From NCBI GenBank assembly GCA_965203355.1, contig OZ241889.1, positions 1,376,001 through 1,440,000 of the forward strand: DNA of 64,000 bases, written 5' to 3'. Below, in pieces: positions 640 through 8,665 of the stretch. Made by a program: the position numbers and the translations under genes. Position 1 is the first letter of the stretch. Each line of letters starts with the position of its first letter. The DNA is from Candidatus Latescibacterota bacterium (lineage in GTDB: Bacteria; Latescibacterota; UBA2968; UBA8231). The notes beneath the pieces were generated by a model. That model saw nothing but the letters and a program-made list of their open reading frames with translations, was not told where the DNA came from and made no database searches.

Positions 640-1080
640 TTAGCCCGCTCCCGTCGAGCCAAAGCCGCCGCTGCCGCGCTCGGTTTTCGCGAGCGTCTCG
701 ACCTCGCTCCACTCGCCGCGCGTCACCGGCGCGAAAATGAGCTGGGCAATGCGGTCACCCGGTCCAATGCGCTGCTCTTCGGACGAAAAATTGACCATGA
801 TGACGCCGACTTCGCCCCGGTAGTCGGCGTCTATTGTGCCTGGGGCGTTGAGCAGCGTTAGGCCGCGCTTGAGGGCCAAGCCACTGCGCGGCCTAACCTG
901 TGCCTCGTAGCCCGGCGGGATTTCGAGGAATAGGCCAGTGGGAATGAGGCCGCGCTCGCCGGGAGCTAACACCACTTCTTCTGCTAGCGCGGCGCGCAAG
1001 TCGAGGCCCGCACTGTGCGCCGTCTCATAGGTGGGCAGTGGTTGGCCGCCCTTGTTGATCACTTTCACTTGAATAGTCAT
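640..1080 (-). CDS. dut: dUTP diphosphatase
   Basis: dUTPase motifs AGLDL, RSGLA, GTIDADYRGE, RIAQL, RGSGGFGSTG. Confidence 0.97.
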   Translation of the reverse strand: MTIQVKVINKGGQPLPTYETAHSAGLDLRAALAEEVVLAPGERGLIPTGLFLEIPPGYEAQVRPRSGLALKRGLTLLNAPGTIDADYRGEVGVIMVNFSSEEQRIGPGDRIAQLIFAPVTRGEWSEVETLAKTERGSGGFGSTGAG

Positions 1081-2279
1081 AAAACCTCTAGCGTCGTCTG
1101 GTGCCGGTCGCGCCAGCGCTGTCGAAGGTCTCGCATGTACACCGCCCCCAACACATAGGCCGTTGAGGCGATGAGGCTGAGGAGGCCGGCGATAAATACG
1201 ATCAGTACGCGCTGGGGCTTGGCCTTGATTTCGGGGGGCGTGGCTGGGTCGAGTATCTGTACGGTCGAAGTGGCGTCCTTGGCTTCGATCAAGGCTTGCG
1301 CTTCCTGTTGCAGCAGGACCAGCAAAAGGGAGGTCTGCACGAGGACATCCTTTTCGAGGGTCGCGTACTTTTGGGCCACGCCTGGGATCTGCTTTAGCGG
1401 CAGGAAGAGGTTTTCATCTAGCCCTAGTTGCAGCGGTTTGTTTTGCAATAGGGTGTTGTCAGCGGGCTTGAGGCCGTCGCGCAAGAAAGCCATGGTCGCC
1501 TGGCGCAGCAGGATTTCGCGCTCGAGCTTTTTGACCTTGTCGTGGTTGGGATCTAGCCCCGATTGAATGAGCCGTTGGCGCTCAATTTCGAGTTCCATCG
1601 CCGCGGTCAGCATCGAGGTGGCCGTTAGAATCACAGCGCGGGCTTGGTCGGCGATCGAGATGGCATTGTGATCGGACTGGAACTGCTCCAGCCGCTTCAT
1701 TTTGTCCTCTAGCTTTTTATCCTCTTCTTGCAAGATCCCGCGAATAAAATTCAAGCGCTCGGAGGCGGTCTTGTGCGAGAACCGCTTGTTGGTGCTATCG
1801 AGTAGGACGATGTAGTAATTGGCCATGTCGGCGGCCATTTGCGGATCTTTGTCTAACACGGATACCGAAAGCATACCCTCTTCGGTCATGTCGGCCGTGG
1901 TATTGTCGGCGAGGGTCTCAAGCGCGTTGGTCAGCATGCGCGCCTCGTAGTGCTGCATCAAGCCAAACTTCTCAACCATCCGCCGCCGGGCCGTAAGGCT
2001 CCTGATGGTGGCGAGAGAAATGTCAGATGGCGTGCCTCTTTCCCCGAGGCGCAAGGTGGGTATGGGCAAGGAAGAGAGCAGGCTGGAAAAACCGAAACTC
2101 TGCTTCTCTTCGCGCGGAGGCAGGATTTGCACAGTGGCCTCGTATTCCTTGGGCAAGAGAAAACTGAGGCCACCGGCTAAAACGCAGATGGCCAAGGTGC
2201 CGCCGATGATCAGCCAGCGGCCCGAGTGCAGTGCCGTTAGCAGATCGATGATGTCGATTTCTTTTTTTGCGGAATTCAT
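1077..2279 (-). CDS. Polysaccharide chain-length determinant (Wzz/GumC/GNVR-type)
   Basis: N-terminal EIDIIDLL plus TM helix, coiled-coil periplasmic region, ILDPATPPEIKAKP plus C-terminal TM; no kinase domain. Confidence 0.88.
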   Translation of the reverse strand: MNSAKKEIDIIDLLTALHSGRWLIIGGTLAICVLAGGLSFLLPKEYEATVQILPPREEKQSFGFSSLLSSLPIPTLRLGERGTPSDISLATIRSLTARRRMVEKFGLMQHYEARMLTNALETLADNTTADMTEEGMLSVSVLDKDPQMAADMANYYIVLLDSTNKRFSHKTASERLNFIRGILQEEDKKLEDKMKRLEQFQSDHNAISIADQARAVILTATSMLTAAMELEIERQRLIQSGLDPNHDKVKKLEREILLRQATMAFLRDGLKPADNTLLQNKPLQLGLDENLFLPLKQIPGVAQKYATLEKDVLVQTSLLLVLLQQEAQALIEAKDATSTVQILDPATPPEIKAKPQRVLIVFIAGLLSLIASTAYVLGAVYMRDLRQRWRDRHQTTLEVL

Positions 2280-2340
2280 TAAGTAGTGCTCCTTGAGATC
2301 CTTTGTCTAAATAGACCGCACCGATAGGACGGGTCGATTA

Positions 2341-4083
2341 TCACCTCGCCGCCGCCTGCACCGCCAGGACGAGGGCGAGGACGCTGGCGGCGGTGCGAAT
2401 AGTCTCCTGAGTGAGTGCCCAGTAGCTGATGCGTTCTTTCTGGGGCACCCATATTTCGTCGCCGACCTCGACTAACAGGTTGTGCTTGAGTTTCTCGCGG
2501 ACGCCCGTGCGCGCCCGGATTAGGCGGGCATTGCGTTTGTCGGCGTCGTACAAATATCCGCCGGCCTTGGCTATGTAGTAGCGCACGTTGCGGCCTATCT
2601 CGTAGTCGATCAACCCCGCCCGTTGCACTTGGCCACTGACGCTGATGGTGTGCCGCTGCATGGGGAAAAAGATCATATCGCCGCTGGCCAGCAGGATGTT
2701 TTGCCCCTCGTCACCATCCACAAACAGCCGCTCGAAATCGACCGCGAGCCGCCCCTTTTCCTCGCGAGTTTTGGTTTTGAGATAAGCCCGATCCTCAATG
2801 TTCATATAGGTGAGGCCCGCCACCTCGCTCTGTCTTTTTAGCTGCTCTAGCTGCGGATCTCTCTCGGCCCGTACCTTGGTGCGGATCACGCGGGCACCGA
2901 TGAGCGACGCTTCGTCGGTGAGGCCACCGGCCGCGGCCACCACGTCCTTGATGCGGGTAACTCCGGGCTCGATGCGGTAGCGGCCTTGGAACGCGACCTC
3001 GCCGGAGATCACCACCGAATGCGTGGACTGCCACAGCGATCGCGCGCGGATGAAGACGGCGTCGTTAGGGCGCAACTCAACATGGCGGATGGTCTCGAAA
3101 TCCAACGCCTCCATGGCTTCTTTATCGCCGCTCAGCTCCATGATTTCGGCCTGCTCGGTGCCCTCCTGAAAGCGCCAGAGTTCGGCGCTGATCAGCGGCT
3201 TGGAGCGATTCAAGCCCTTGGCCAGTGTCACTAGGTCGCCGAGGGTGTCCCCGGGTAGGAACTCGTATTCGCCCGCTTCGTTGACCGCGCCGAAGATGGA
3301 CACCGAATGCTTGCGAAACGAGACATGGACGACGTCGCCCATGCGCACGTAGGGATTGTGCGCGAGGTCGCCGGTGGCGAGGAACATATCGAGATCCACG
3401 CGCTCGCTGGTGCCGTCGCGGTGGAGCAGTTGGATGGAGCGCCGCCCGGTGTTGCGGTTGGCCTGCTGATCTTGCAACGCAATCCTTTGCAAGCGGTCCC
3501 TAAAGCCGCCGGCCTGATTGATTATGTCGGCAACCCGCGTGGTCGGATGGATGGTGAAGCTGCCCTCGTCGATCACCGCGCCAGTGACGTACGCGGTGAA
3601 GAAGCGCATACTCACGAGAGAGATGCTGATGTCCACGCCAGGGTACTTTTTTTGCGTTGCGGCAGCGAGCAGCGCTTTGGCTGCGGTCAGCGACAGGCCC
3701 GAAATGTGAAACGAGCCGACGGTGGGGATGAGGACATTGCCCTCTGGATCGACCTGCAAGGTGTAGAGCTGATCGAATTCGCCCCAGATGTAGAGTTGCA
3801 ATACGTCGTTGGGACCGACGATGTACGCGTCTGGGTCTATATCCCGGTCCTGACCAATGCGCGTCTTGTCCTCGCCTAAACTGCCGGGTAGGCGCGCCTT
3901 ACCGGAGACCTGCTCCAGATCTAGATCCGGGAGGTCGGCCGCGGAAAAAGCCTGTAGTCCGGTTCCACCACCCCCCAGATTGATCAGATTTTCCAAGTTT
4001 CCTAAGCCTTGTTGGGCGCTGGCTGGCCCTGCTAGCCCGCAAAAGACCAAGGCGCAAGCAAGGGCAAAAATGCTCGTTGGCAT
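2341..4083 (-). CDS. Polysaccharide export protein with SLBB repeats (Wza/KpsD-like)
   Basis: Signal peptide, YIVGPNDVLQLYIWG Poly_export motif, repeated VxGxV..G.Y SLBB units. Confidence 0.9.
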   Translation of the reverse strand: MPTSIFALACALVFCGLAGPASAQQGLGNLENLINLGGGGTGLQAFSAADLPDLDLEQVSGKARLPGSLGEDKTRIGQDRDIDPDAYIVGPNDVLQLYIWGEFDQLYTLQVDPEGNVLIPTVGSFHISGLSLTAAKALLAAATQKKYPGVDISISLVSMRFFTAYVTGAVIDEGSFTIHPTTRVADIINQAGGFRDRLQRIALQDQQANRNTGRRSIQLLHRDGTSERVDLDMFLATGDLAHNPYVRMGDVVHVSFRKHSVSIFGAVNEAGEYEFLPGDTLGDLVTLAKGLNRSKPLISAELWRFQEGTEQAEIMELSGDKEAMEALDFETIRHVELRPNDAVFIRARSLWQSTHSVVISGEVAFQGRYRIEPGVTRIKDVVAAAGGLTDEASLIGARVIRTKVRAERDPQLEQLKRQSEVAGLTYMNIEDRAYLKTKTREEKGRLAVDFERLFVDGDEGQNILLASGDMIFFPMQRHTISVSGQVQRAGLIDYEIGRNVRYYIAKAGGYLYDADKRNARLIRARTGVREKLKHNLLVEVGDEIWVPQKERISYWALTQETIRTAASVLALVLAVQAAAR

Positions 4084-5831: not shown

Positions 5832-6083
5832 TTATTTTGGCCCCTTGGCGATGGTGCCGGTGAGCAACCGCGGAAACCCGGCCAACAGCGGAATCGCCGC
5901 TGCAATAAGCGACTGCACGGGTAGCATTGCTTGGTCGATAAAAAAGAAGAAGTAGAGAAAGGTCAAAACGCCGCATAGGGCGAATAGCTTGACGATGCCG
6001 GGCCCTTGGCGCGGGATGTCGCGGATTACAGCGGGCAGGGTCTGCTCTTCGTCAAAGCAGGGAATCTGCACGATTAGCTTCAT
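5832..6083 (-). pseudogene. Internally deleted family-2 glycosyltransferase remnant
   Basis: MKLIVQIPCFDEEQTLPAVIRDIPR is a GT2 N-terminus joined directly to a C-terminal TM-like segment (FLYFFF...VQSLIAAAI); catalytic core absent, 83 aa. Confidence 0.7.
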
Positions 6084-6971
6084 TCACCCCCAGCTTTCCT
6101 GCCGGATTTGCTTTTTGTCCAGCCCGTGCTCCTGCAAGAGCGCGACCATGTTTTCGACGAAGCGCGGCTCGGGGGTCTCGCCTTTGGCCCTAGCGGCCTT
6201 GCGCTCGTGCGGCGTGATGCCCGGACCGCAGCTATAGGCCAGTACGCTGGAGGGATCCGGGGCGATCTCGCGCAAAAGTTCCCCAGCGATGCGTCCTTGG
6301 CGGGCACCGCGAATGCCAGCGGGGTCTTCGCGGGTGATGCAGTGAATCACGTCGAGTCGATCGGGATACTGCGCCCGCAGCACCTCGAGTTCCTCAAAGT
6401 AAATGATGTCGCCGCGCGTCTTGTTGCTAAACAGCAAGGTGTGCCTAAGCGAATCGCCGCGGTGCAGACTTTCCTTGATCAGGCTTCGGTTGGGCACGAT
6501 GCCGCTGCCAGCGCACACGTGGAGGATGTGGTCGGTGCGCTCGCAGACATCGGCGGGAAAGGTGTACGCCCCGGTAAAACCGCTGATGACTAGCCGTCGG
6601 CCCTCGTGGATGTAGTACGTCAACAGCGGCGACAAAAGCGGTGGGTACGGGGTCTGGCCGCTCTCGTAGCGTTCTTCTTTGATCGTAATGGCGAGGTGCT
6701 CTTCGTGCGGCGCAGAGGCCATGGAATAGGCCCGCGGCTTTTCCCGCTGCCCCTTTTGATCTTCTAGATAGGCGGTGAAATGCGCTAGCTCGCCGAACTG
6801 ATGGGGATCAATGGTGCAGAAGTGCCCGGCCTCGTATTCGATTGGATCGTCGCCAGCGGACATAAAGAGCGTGGTGGTGTCTGGGGTGTCGCGGCGCACG
6901 TGGACGACCTCCACCTCCAGCGCCCGGACCCGACGCCTTGGCGTGCGCGTTGTTTGCTCTGAGGTGTTCAT
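6084..6971 (-). CDS. FAD/NAD(P)-binding oxidoreductase (ferredoxin-NADP reductase-like)
   Basis: RAYSMAS FAD motif, CAGSGIVP, YSCGP, C-terminal ESWG. Confidence 0.88.
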   Translation of the reverse strand: MNTSEQTTRTPRRRVRALEVEVVHVRRDTPDTTTLFMSAGDDPIEYEAGHFCTIDPHQFGELAHFTAYLEDQKGQREKPRAYSMASAPHEEHLAITIKEERYESGQTPYPPLLSPLLTYYIHEGRRLVISGFTGAYTFPADVCERTDHILHVCAGSGIVPNRSLIKESLHRGDSLRHTLLFSNKTRGDIIYFEELEVLRAQYPDRLDVIHCITREDPAGIRGARQGRIAGELLREIAPDPSSVLAYSCGPGITPHERKAARAKGETPEPRFVENMVALLQEHGLDKKQIRQESWG

Positions 6972-6972
6972 A

Positions 6973-7239
6973 CTAGCGCTTCCTAGCCAAATGCGCTTTC
7001 ATCTTTTCGATCAGGGCCTCGTCGTCTGCCGACGAGGCCACCATCTCCGCGAATGCTGCGGCTGTCAACTCCACTTCCTCCAGGAAGTGCTGGTCGGCCG
7101 GTCAGGGAAATACGTAGTCGCCGATGCGTTGCTGTTGGTAGGCCCGCGCTTTGTCGGCGATTCGCGCCAGCCAGGGAATGTCGCCGATGATCATTCCTCG
7201 GGCCCGGGGCTTGAAGTCGAGCGTGTTCCACTCGCTCAT
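6973..7239 (-). CDS. DUF5069-like probable selenoprotein, 88 aa, UGA (7102-7104) read as Sec46
   Basis: GGAGG RBS; ATG overlaps upstream TGA; WLARIADKARA...IGDYVFP-TGA-PADQHFLEEVELTAAAF...DDEALIEKMKAHLARKR stays open to a TAG 1 nt before the next ATG; hairpin 3' of the UGA. Confidence 0.8.
7059..7101 (-). promoter_or_regulatory. Candidate bacterial SECIS element
   Basis: 12 nt after UGA: CACUUCC-UGGA-GGAAGUG 7-bp stem, extendable by CGAC/GUUG and CGGC/GCCG. Confidence 0.65.
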
Positions 7240-8291
7240 AAGGTACCTCCGCGTGGTGATAGACAAAATTGCAACCGGCTTCTGAACTCGGCTGCACTTG
7301 GGTCTGTGCTCAAGCCCTGAGCCAACATGGCCGCGCATTGCCGCAGCCGCGCATAGGGCCTTTTCCAGCGTTGGCGCAAGGCCAGCGCGTGCGGCCCGCC
7401 ATTGAGCGCTGCACACAACAGGGCCGCGCTGTTTAAGAGAAAAAAGATGCGGTGATAATCGAGCGCCCGCGCACCGTCGCCGCGCCCGGATACTTCGGCG
7501 TATAAACGCGCTGCGGGCGCGTCCAGCAGCGAGCCCATGCGCCCATCCTGCCGCCCGCTGCCCATGCTAGTAGTATACTGCGTCAAACGCCTTTCCGTCC
7601 AGTCCCAACCCATTTTGGCAAATTCGAGAAAGTAAACGCGCGTGCCCTCCGGCCCGACGATTGCATTGCGCGCATTGTAATCTAGGCTGCCCAGCGAAAC
7701 GGGGCGCGTCGCCAGCCAATCGTGCATGGATTCGAGCAGCGGTGGCAGCCCAACGTCTAGCGGGCGGCACAACTGTTCGATGCCAGCGTGCGCCCGGACT
7801 CCCGCTTCGTCCCAGGCGGCGTCCAGCGCGGCGCGGTTGGCACTGGGCACTATCCTCGGTTCTAGCTGGGCGGCGCGTTGGGCGCACGCGCGCTCAATGG
7901 CGCACAAACCGCGTATGGCTTGTAGCGTCGCCGTGCGGTCTCCATCCTGAATAGCGTCGTCAAGGGTGCGATCACCGACCCATTGCAAGAAGATGCAGTG
8001 GGCATCTGAGTCTATGCCGAGGACCGTGGGCACTAGACATCCGTCTGCGCGCAAGAAGCCGAGCACGTCCCGCTCGACTTCCAACAGGTCGTAAGCCGTG
8101 CCCTGCGTCAGCCTGCCGAAGAGCTGATGCTTAACCACGACCTTGCGGCCGTCCGCGTCTTCGACGCGCCAGACCCCTCGGGCGAGCGGAGTGATAGCGC
8201 GGACGGGCGGATACCCCGTACGCACATAGGCCGCGGCGGCCTGATCCCCGTTCACCGGCCACGGATCCTCCGCGTGGTCGGCGCGGCTCAT
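7236..8291 (-). CDS. Aminoglycoside/choline kinase-like phosphotransferase family protein
   Basis: VVVKH, E..VLGFL, LQWVGDRTL, DYNARN (Brenner-like), FLEFAKMG. Confidence 0.6.
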   Translation of the reverse strand: MSRADHAEDPWPVNGDQAAAAYVRTGYPPVRAITPLARGVWRVEDADGRKVVVKHQLFGRLTQGTAYDLLEVERDVLGFLRADGCLVPTVLGIDSDAHCIFLQWVGDRTLDDAIQDGDRTATLQAIRGLCAIERACAQRAAQLEPRIVPSANRAALDAAWDEAGVRAHAGIEQLCRPLDVGLPPLLESMHDWLATRPVSLGSLDYNARNAIVGPEGTRVYFLEFAKMGWDWTERRLTQYTTSMGSGRQDGRMGSLLDAPAARLYAEVSGRGDGARALDYHRIFFLLNSAALLCAALNGGPHALALRQRWKRPYARLRQCAAMLAQGLSTDPSAAEFRSRLQFCLSPRGGTL

Positions 8292-8665
8292 GGTTGGCTG
8301 AAGACGATGATTTGCGCGACGACTTTGCCGGCTTGGTTGTTGAAGGCTGGATTTTCGTTCATGGCCAAGAAGAGCACCCCGGCGCGGTCGGCAATAAAGT
8401 CGTAGCGGCTGCCCACGGCAAAGGTCGGCCCGTCGTCGCCGATGCGGGCGATGAGCGCACCAACGTTAGCCGCTGGCAGGAGGTACCCCTCGTCAGCCGG
8501 TAAGTTGTACAAGCCATCGGCTCCACACCAAGCGATTTGGTTGCGCAGGTCCGGCGACCAAGTTTCCTCGGCGTCGATGACGACCCGCTGGCCGCTCTCC
8601 AGCCGGATCAAGCTGTCTTGCCATTGCGGACTAGGCCGCACCGTACGCATAATTGTTACAGCCAC
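8288..8665 (-). CDS. Small PA-IL/LecA-like beta-sandwich protein
   Basis: WQDSLIRLESGQRVVIDAEETW...GALIARIG...GVLFLAMNE...NNQAG pattern. Confidence 0.55.
   Translation of the reverse strand: MAVTIMRTVRPSPQWQDSLIRLESGQRVVIDAEETWSPDLRNQIAWCGADGLYNLPADEGYLLPAANVGALIARIGDDGPTFAVGSRYDFIADRAGVLFLAMNENPAFNNQAGKVVAQIIVFSQP

Follow-up and report, generated by a model that had tools for sequence, protein, structure and literature searches.

Small redox proteins with an adjacent, dedicated NAD(P)H flavoprotein are familiar from thioredoxin with thioredoxin reductase and from AhpC with AhpF. The family DUF5069 (PF16798) is a domain family without known function, so that membership in it explains nothing about chemistry, and its solved member is an uncharacterised protein of 145 amino acids (aa) from Leptospirillum rubarum (PDB 3omd). 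Among the predicted bacterial selenoprotein families there are also several of the DUF type, namely DUF3179, DUF166, DUF1573 and DUF523 (PMC13188914, Table 1), and the same table of this 2026 review catalogues 119 selenoprotein families and subfamilies together with their domain ids (PMC13188914). Here we describe a short DUF5069 gene with one in-frame TGA from a 64,000-nucleotide (nt) stretch of a Candidatus Latescibacterota bacterium (contig OZ241889.1 of assembly GCA_965203355.1, positions 1,376,001 to 1,440,000), which as a whole is termed the window. A first-pass annotation, made by a model from the letters alone, had proposed a hidden DUF5069-like selenoprotein coupled to an FNR-type reductase. 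Comparison with relatives, among them dozens of uncultured marine bacteria that retain both the TGA and the RNA hairpin following it, indicates that the gene very probably encodes a genuine selenocysteine (Sec) protein. The best overall explanation, to which we assign a probability of about 0.8, is an 88-residue selenoprotein whose Sec46 would be reactive and which would form a module with a kinase-like and a lectin-like protein, with an FNR-type flavoprotein as possible electron donor in the window's clade.

The gene lies on the minus strand, where it opens with an ATG at 7239..7237 and closes with a TAG at 6975..6973, and a check of the frame confirmed codon 46 as its sole in-frame TGA, in the context GDYVFP-TGA-PADQHFL. 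The upstream 351-aa open reading frame (ORF) ends at 7236 and its own TGA overlaps the ATG of the DUF5069 gene as ATGA, an arrangement that may reflect translational coupling, and the downstream FNR-type ORF begins at 6971, 1 nt past the TAG. The 88-codon frame, the lone TGA, the ATGA overlap and the 1-nt gap to the next ATG, from which the first-pass annotation had started, were all re-checked and are correct. Apart from the site of residue 46, the predicted protein contains no Cys. A GGAGG motif stands at a distance from the ATG where it may act as the ribosome-binding site. The elements of the gene itself are as follows, including the hairpin that resembles a selenocysteine insertion sequence (SECIS):

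7239..6973, minus strand: short DUF5069 gene of 88 codons, putative selenoprotein (frame, PF16798 match, alignment, AlphaFold model, 3omd_A match)
7104..7102, minus strand: in-frame UGA, putative Sec46, on the conserved Cys of Y-x-[YF]-P-C-P-x-D (alignment, codon count in 80 loci, sequencing runs)
7250..7246, minus strand: GGAGG, Shine-Dalgarno-like motif 6 nt before the ATG and within the 3' end of the upstream gene (read from the sequence)
7089..7072, minus strand: SECIS-like hairpin CACUUCC-UGGA-GGAAGUG, with its arms at 7089..7083 and 7078..7072 and its loop UGGA at 7082..7079 (fold, covariation, folding energies)

When the frame is read through the TGA, the product matches Pfam DUF5069 with E=1.4e-12 and 48.3 bits (cut-off 27), and the match spans profile positions 4-79 of 133, which is less than a full-length domain. 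Among 5.8 billion proteins searched, 61 relatives of the read-through product were retrieved, nearly all of 81-121 aa, and because about 60 close homologues all fall within this range, we regard the window protein and these homologues as a short DUF5069 subfamily. In an alignment of 62 sequences the TGA falls on a Cys that is kept in at least 90% of them, within the motif Y-x-Y-P-C-P-A-D, and not on a Trp or a variable residue; K10, R12, R14, R26 and K30 are invariant. The sequence match to 3omd_A (E=1.3e-11) places the Cys of YTYNCPLDQ opposite TGA46, and the Cys that the first-pass annotation had attributed to DUF5069 proteins at this position is therefore real. The AlphaFold (AF2) model, with a predicted local distance difference test (pLDDT) value of 83.5, has four helices and places residue 46 immediately ahead of helix 47-55, and a Foldseek comparison of this model with the PDB aligns it to 3omd_A with a query TM-score (TMq) of 0.78, a root-mean-square deviation of 1.0 Å and 33% identity over 73 columns. 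In this comparison the part after the UGA makes up helices 2-4 of the DUF5069 fold. As for fused forms of the protein, 67 candidates of 155-2000 aa were found and none was significant, which is weak evidence. A different DUF5069 protein also exists in Latescibacterota and Poribacteria genomes that hold the Sec gene; it consists of three tandem full-length repeats (about 420-457 aa) with GDD, GAD or GGD at the Cys site, and is encoded at L109 577..1938 (plus strand), G003:C1:1522077-1523315 and G004:C1:2990327-2991577.

A scan of one genome per prokaryotic species yielded 173 confirmed relatives, and the locus counts given here and below refer to the best 80 of the 173. At codon 46 tblastn found TGA in 67 of these loci and a Cys codon in the other 13 (TGC in 8, TGT in 5), a ratio that is biased towards the query in that the 80 loci are those most similar to it. 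The TGA loci are labelled Latescibacterota (24 close ones, at 89-95% protein identity), Gemmatimonadota, one Planctomycetota metagenome-assembled genome (MAG) and Poribacteria; the Poribacteria clade holds 22 of them at 55-61% identity, 21 labelled Poribacteria and one (L069) labelled 'uncultured bacterium'. On a maximum-likelihood tree the Sec forms lie in three clades, the Sec/Cys label needs about three changes, and the sister of the window is a Latescibacterota MAG (L002). L013 (labelled Alphaproteobacteria) and the Latescibacterota locus L018 encode identical DUF5069 proteins and share their neighbouring genes; the label of L013 is probably a binning error. The locus labelled Gemmatimonas (L038) belongs to a MAG. 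For codon analysis we used 62 TGA-bearing sequences, comprising 25 close Latescibacterota (the window included), 22 Poribacteria and 15 others. Codons 47-85 contain no stop in any of the 62, and most of the variation falls on third codon positions: the close Latescibacterota have 7, 7 and 19 variable columns at positions 1, 2 and 3, and the Poribacteria have 10, 9 and 25.

The hairpin begins 12 nt past the UGA, and the distance from the UGA to the loop is 19 nt. The published model of the bacterial SECIS (bSECIS) describes a loop of 3-9 nt, a stem of 4-16 bp, a G in the first two loop positions, a UGA-to-loop distance of 16-37 nt and a minimum free energy (MFE) of -7.5 kcal/mol or lower (PMC13188914, Fig. 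2 legend), and the window hairpin lies within these constraints with its UGGA loop, 7 bp, 19 nt and -8.4 kcal/mol. The 7-bp hairpin folds as the first-pass annotation had described it; the lower-stem extensions that had been added to it do not stand, as they amount to four pairs seen only in the MFE fold of the window and not kept in relatives. We aligned the 48 nt from the UGA in the window and 66 TGA loci (55 distinct rows; L057 was omitted, as the locus ends too early). Pairing holds in 93.8% of the cells of the 7-bp helix in this alignment; sliding the 3' partners by 1-3 columns lowers that value to 36-72%. As for the hairpin covariation that the first-pass annotation had proposed to look for, both sides change in three of the seven pairs: pair 18-31 is C-G in 34 rows, G-C in 21 and unpaired in none, and pair 17-32 occurs as four pair types. 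The observed score was reached by none of 500 shuffles. The arms read CAC/GUG in close Latescibacterota, CGC with GUG or GCG in the other non-Poribacteria Sec loci and AUG/CAU in Poribacteria, so that between clades the flanking amino acids differ (H..V versus M..H) and the pairing is retained.

Folding energies follow the codon at position 46. The 18-nt hairpin has -5.6 to -9.9 kcal/mol (mean -7.6) in the 67 TGA loci, against a mean of -2.0 kcal/mol in the 13 Cys loci, of which 12 have a weak hairpin and only L033 has kept it. In that locus (L033 6136..6183, Cys codon TGT) the full 7-bp hairpin folds with -8.0 kcal/mol around another loop, UACA, and the locus appears to have changed from Sec to Cys recently. 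The count of allowed pairs, with G-U included, was a poor separator of Sec and Cys forms, since 7 of the 13 Cys loci reach 6 of 7 pairs, and it was folding energy that separated them. Codon choice under the hairpin is nearly fixed in the Sec loci, with TTC in 65, CTG in 67, GAG in 66 and GAA in 62 of the 67, and mixed in the Cys loci. Within the close group, third positions vary in 2 of the 11 codons under the hairpin versus 28 of the 44 upstream.

The machinery for Sec insertion was tested in the genomes of four relatives, the Latescibacterota of L001 and L004 and the Poribacteria of L059 and L060, and tRNA-Sec (70-78 bits, anticodon tca), SelB (326-346 bits), SelA (561-584 bits) and SelD (358-376 bits) were found in all four. 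Because selD carries one in-frame TGA in each of the four (loci L097-L100 of genomes G001-G004), SelD is probably itself a selenoprotein there. Both Poribacteria genomes have the tRNA-Sec gene and selB as immediate neighbours on one strand (G004:C1:810042-812090 and G003:C1:179173-181207). The 64-kb window itself contains no tRNA gene. Possession of the machinery was ruled out as a discriminator between Sec and Cys forms, as tRNA-Sec is present in 5 of 5 Cys-form genomes as well. Thus, the hidden Sec-containing DUF5069 protein of the first-pass annotation is supported by the alignment to Cys, the 3' hairpin, the TGA in relatives and the sel machinery in relatives.

Public annotation has treated the site in several ways. 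A profile search of 1.84 billion cluster representatives gave 421 relatives, and among the best 150 of them 12 end exactly at ...Y-x-Y-P, the residue before Sec. The gene calls P0060 and P0141 have W at the Sec site, and P0062 is truncated there. If the Sec assignment is true, a systematic annotation error would be corrected, in which public gene calls cut the protein at residue 45 or give Trp.

The genes around the DUF5069 gene, all on the minus strand, are the following:

8665..8288, minus strand: 125-aa protein with weak similarity to PA-IL (LecA-type lectin), first gene of a conserved trio (PF07828, synteny)
8291..7236, minus strand: 351-aa kinase-like protein, upstream of the DUF5069 gene (synteny, PF01636 leads, invariant residues)
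6971..6084, minus strand: 295-aa FNR-family FAD/NAD(P)H oxidoreductase without a ferredoxin domain (PF00175, PDB matches, synteny)
6083..5832, minus strand: remnant of a family-2 glycosyltransferase, next gene of the operon (comparison with L002, L001 and L004)

The downstream neighbour matches PF00175 with 52.3 bits, and the PaaE, NqrF and FNR models of NCBIfam match it below their cut-offs; against PDB sequences it gave 56 matches, among them nitrate reductase and FNR chains, the best with E=3.4e-9. Judged by these matches, it is a genuine FNR-family flavoprotein, and its sequence also holds RAYS and GSGIVP, which we take to be FNR motifs. The 351-aa protein had no Pfam match even at E<=10, and a profile of its family had none among PDB sequences. 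Its neighbours in a language-model atlas carry PF01636, an APH-like lead, and PF01636 was found in 1 of 78 homologues. K54, E73, D204, N209 and D230 are invariant in this family and are presumably kinase motifs, and the kinase label may be used as a lead only. The 125-aa protein reaches PA-IL (PF07828) with E=0.0029 and 18.1 bits, below the 22.5-bit cut-off, and matched no PDB sequence, so the lectin label is a weak one.

The kinase-like gene stands upstream in 53 of the 80 loci, in Sec and Cys forms alike, and the lectin-like gene accompanies it in 51 of these 53, the contig ending first in L010 and L013. The operon with a kinase-like and a lectin-like gene that had been proposed at first pass is borne out as an adjacency, in 53 of 80 loci for the former gene and in 51 of these for the latter; its labels fared less well, that of the lectin lying below the Pfam cut-off and that of the kinase being a lead only. 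In the Poribacteria, the DUF5069 gene is instead neighboured by UPF0182, PheA and QueG, and a kinase-like homologue at 30-35% identity is found elsewhere in the genome.

At the far end of the operon, the glycosyltransferase is 317 aa at full length in relatives (the L002 homologue matches PF00535 with 76.2 bits), and only its first approximately 30 residues match in the window, where 150 bp of unrelated sequence (5993..5843) stand against about 850 bp in L002, L001 and L004. The short form is either a deletion/replacement or an assembly artefact. Further downstream on the same strand follow an ArgC-like gene, TatD and Wza- and Wzz-like polysaccharide export genes, the latter being of the Wzz/GNVR type and the Wza type (Poly_export, SLBB) and located at 1077..4083 (minus strand). 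Their proximity to the operon is a hint of a link to envelope polysaccharide.

Three other explanations dispense with Sec altogether. TGA is one base from TGC or TGT, and a sequencing or assembly error, one of the refuters that the first-pass annotation had named, is the least probable of the three. It is refuted as far as the contigs show: contigs X1 and X4, built from runs of two studies, have zero differences from the window over the DUF5069 stretch, 7102..7104 is likewise unchanged in the related sponge metagenome X5 and in the RNA-library contig X17, and the TGA recurs in the 24 close relatives. The X17 metatranscriptome contig (451 nt, depth 3) spans 6998..7448 and not 6700..6997, and is a weak hint of transcription, DNA carry-over being possible. 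A true stop, which would leave a pseudogene or a 45-residue peptide followed by a decaying remnant, agrees with the standard code, under which the frame ends at codon 46, and with gene callers that list N-terminal products of 45-90 residues and a frameshifted P0061 call. We consider it highly improbable, however, given that the TGA recurs in 67 of the 80 loci, under labels that span at least four phyla, that codons 47-85 are stop-free in 62 of 62 sequences with variation mainly at third positions, and that the sequence past the UGA matches helices 2-4 of the DUF5069 fold. Only slightly better are the prospects of a UGA46 that is read through or recoded without selenium, by near-cognate insertion of Trp or Cys or by a local reassignment of TGA. 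The W in P0060 and P0141 speaks for it insofar as some pipelines applied a TGA=W code; still, the TGA aligns to Cys and not to Trp, it is an ordinary stop in the window, where it ends 17 of the 38 frames of at least 300 codons and both neighbouring genes, the hairpin fits the SelB-type bSECIS model, and the relatives' genomes hold the full Sec machinery in four of four cases.

Several observations weigh against the selenoprotein and its proposed mechanism. Sec at residue 46 is a prediction from sequence, and the window organism is presumed to have sel genes on the strength of relatives that share about 89-92% DNA identity with it. The 71-nt region of the window folds no better than its own shuffles (z = -0.26), and because of this the support for Sec comes from comparison with relatives and not from the window alone. 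Kinship of the compared sequences inflates the shuffle and Mann-Whitney statistics. The hairpin core UUCCUGGAGGAA doubles as codons for the conserved F-L-E-E, and protein constraint therefore contributes to the conservation of the hairpin. An Rfam scan of 6950..7250 at E<=10 returned two chance-level matches and no SECIS family. Foldseek found nothing credible in the PDB other than 3omd, which leaves the fold without a characterised relative. Cys is not universal in DUF5069, as the three-repeat protein of Sec-gene genomes lacks it, and the five Cys-form genomes with tRNA-Sec mean that use of Sec is not forced by the host. The gene call P0061 of a close relative tracks the window protein over roughly 31 residues before it passes into a different frame, either through a contig frameshift or through an assembly indel. 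As to the electron donor, the FNR-type gene directly follows in 39 of the 80 loci, comprising 29 of the 67 with TGA and 10 of the 13 with Cys, and neither it nor the kinase-like or lectin-like gene stands beside the 22 Poribacteria-clade copies or in L053-L056 and L058. The kinase-like and lectin-like genes are thus more constant partners than the FNR gene, and of the coupling proposed at first pass the FNR flavoprotein itself is real and its adjacency is partial.

These counts bear directly on an explanation that keeps Sec and gives it another task. The residue would act in catalysis as a nucleophile or would bind a metal or ligand, the protein would be a subunit of the kinase-like protein or its partner, and the FNR gene would be a clade-specific neighbour that serves a purpose of its own. 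A role of this kind would be in keeping with a kinase-like gene directly upstream in 53 loci against 39 for FNR, with the ATGA overlap of the two genes in the window, with the retention of the Sec gene by Poribacteria that have none of these neighbours, with the absence of a second Cys from the window protein, and with the invariant K10, R12, R14, R26 and K30, which would suit an anionic ligand. On the other side, most known selenoproteins are redox proteins (PMC13188914), the 1-nt spacing to the FNR gene in the window's clade suggests co-translation, and the kinase-like homologue of Poribacteria, at 30-35% identity, lies apart from the Sec gene. A redox role with the FNR protein as electron donor is a tentative proposal that we place somewhat below even odds, and the kinase-partner role appears about as likely.

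For the selenoprotein with an FNR donor, we suggest the following course of events. tRNA-Sec and SelB would read UGA46 as Sec, guided by the UGGA-loop hairpin of 7 bp that starts 12 nt downstream, and Sec would take the place of the conserved Cys in Y-x-[YF]-P-C-P-x-D, just before the modelled helix 47-55. Because the window protein is without any other Cys, Sec46 would be a lone selenol and an intramolecular selenenylsulfide is impossible. Sec46 may then serve as the reactive residue, redox or nucleophilic, of an otherwise uncharacterised all-alpha fold; the DUF5069 protein, the kinase-like protein and the lectin-like protein would function as one module, and in the window's clade the adjacent FNR-type flavoprotein would supply electrons from NAD(P)H.

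We are aware of no earlier listing of this family in the sources searched. PF16798/DUF5069 is not among the domain ids of the 119-family table (PMC13188914, Table 1), no NCBIfam model matches the DUF5069 protein at E<=0.01, and DUF5069 is not mentioned in the searched literature. It is not among the new families in the accessible part of the deep-Sep paper, and the main text and one supplement of BSepDB contain neither DUF5069 nor PF16798, this supplement being without any 'DUF' and probably not the family table. Nothing relevant was found on selenoproteins of Poribacteria or Latescibacter* in those portions of the literature that were accessible. The searched literature likewise holds no characterised Sec-containing DUF5069 system, as the first-pass annotation had supposed. 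The sequence evidence thus makes this a credible uncatalogued selenoprotein family, with prior listing elsewhere possible.

If the assignment is true, one residue of a domain of unknown function would be marked as chemically important; a Sec that replaces Cys is generally read as pointing to a redox-active or catalytic site. One more family would join the 119 families and subfamilies of bacterial selenoproteins counted in the 2026 review (PMC13188914), with hosts among uncultured Latescibacterota, Poribacteria and Gemmatimonadota. A bolder reading, which we put forward as speculative and on present grounds rather doubtful, is that the short DUF5069 proteins could constitute a new selenoenzyme class with a non-thioredoxin, all-alpha fold. 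Catalysis by a conserved lectin-like/kinase-like/DUF5069 module, joined in some clades by an FNR-type reductase, would then centre on a lone Sec at the N-terminus of a helix, and Sec rather than Cys would predominate among sponge-associated and marine Latescibacterota, Gemmatimonadota and Poribacteria. Were this so, a first lead on function would be available for DUF5069 as a whole, and phyla with scarcely described selenoproteomes would gain a widespread selenoprotein.

Compared with the systems named at the outset, the window protein shares with 3omd the motif G-x-Y-x-Y-x-C-P-x-D, the Cys of 3omd standing at the Sec position, and differs from it in having 88 instead of 145 residues, in missing the C-terminal third and in its putative Sec in place of Cys. 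With the thioredoxin and AhpC systems there is an analogy only: a small protein with Cys or Sec at a helix N-terminus is likewise encoded beside a flavoprotein, here at a distance of 1 nt. The reductase of the window, however, has the plant-type FNR fold and not the fold of the pyridine-nucleotide disulfide reductases, neither partner has a dithiol motif at a known active-site position, and the adjacency is limited to 39 of 80 loci. In kind the family resembles the predicted bacterial selenoprotein families, with which it shares a Cys/Sec pair, TGA homologues in other organisms that use Sec, and a hairpin in agreement with the bSECIS model; it departs from them in that the window protein is without a thioredoxin-like fold and without UxxC or CxxU, and in that the Sec form outnumbers the Cys form by 67 to 13 in a query-biased set. 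The family combines an unusual fold, unusual host phyla and an apparent majority of Sec.

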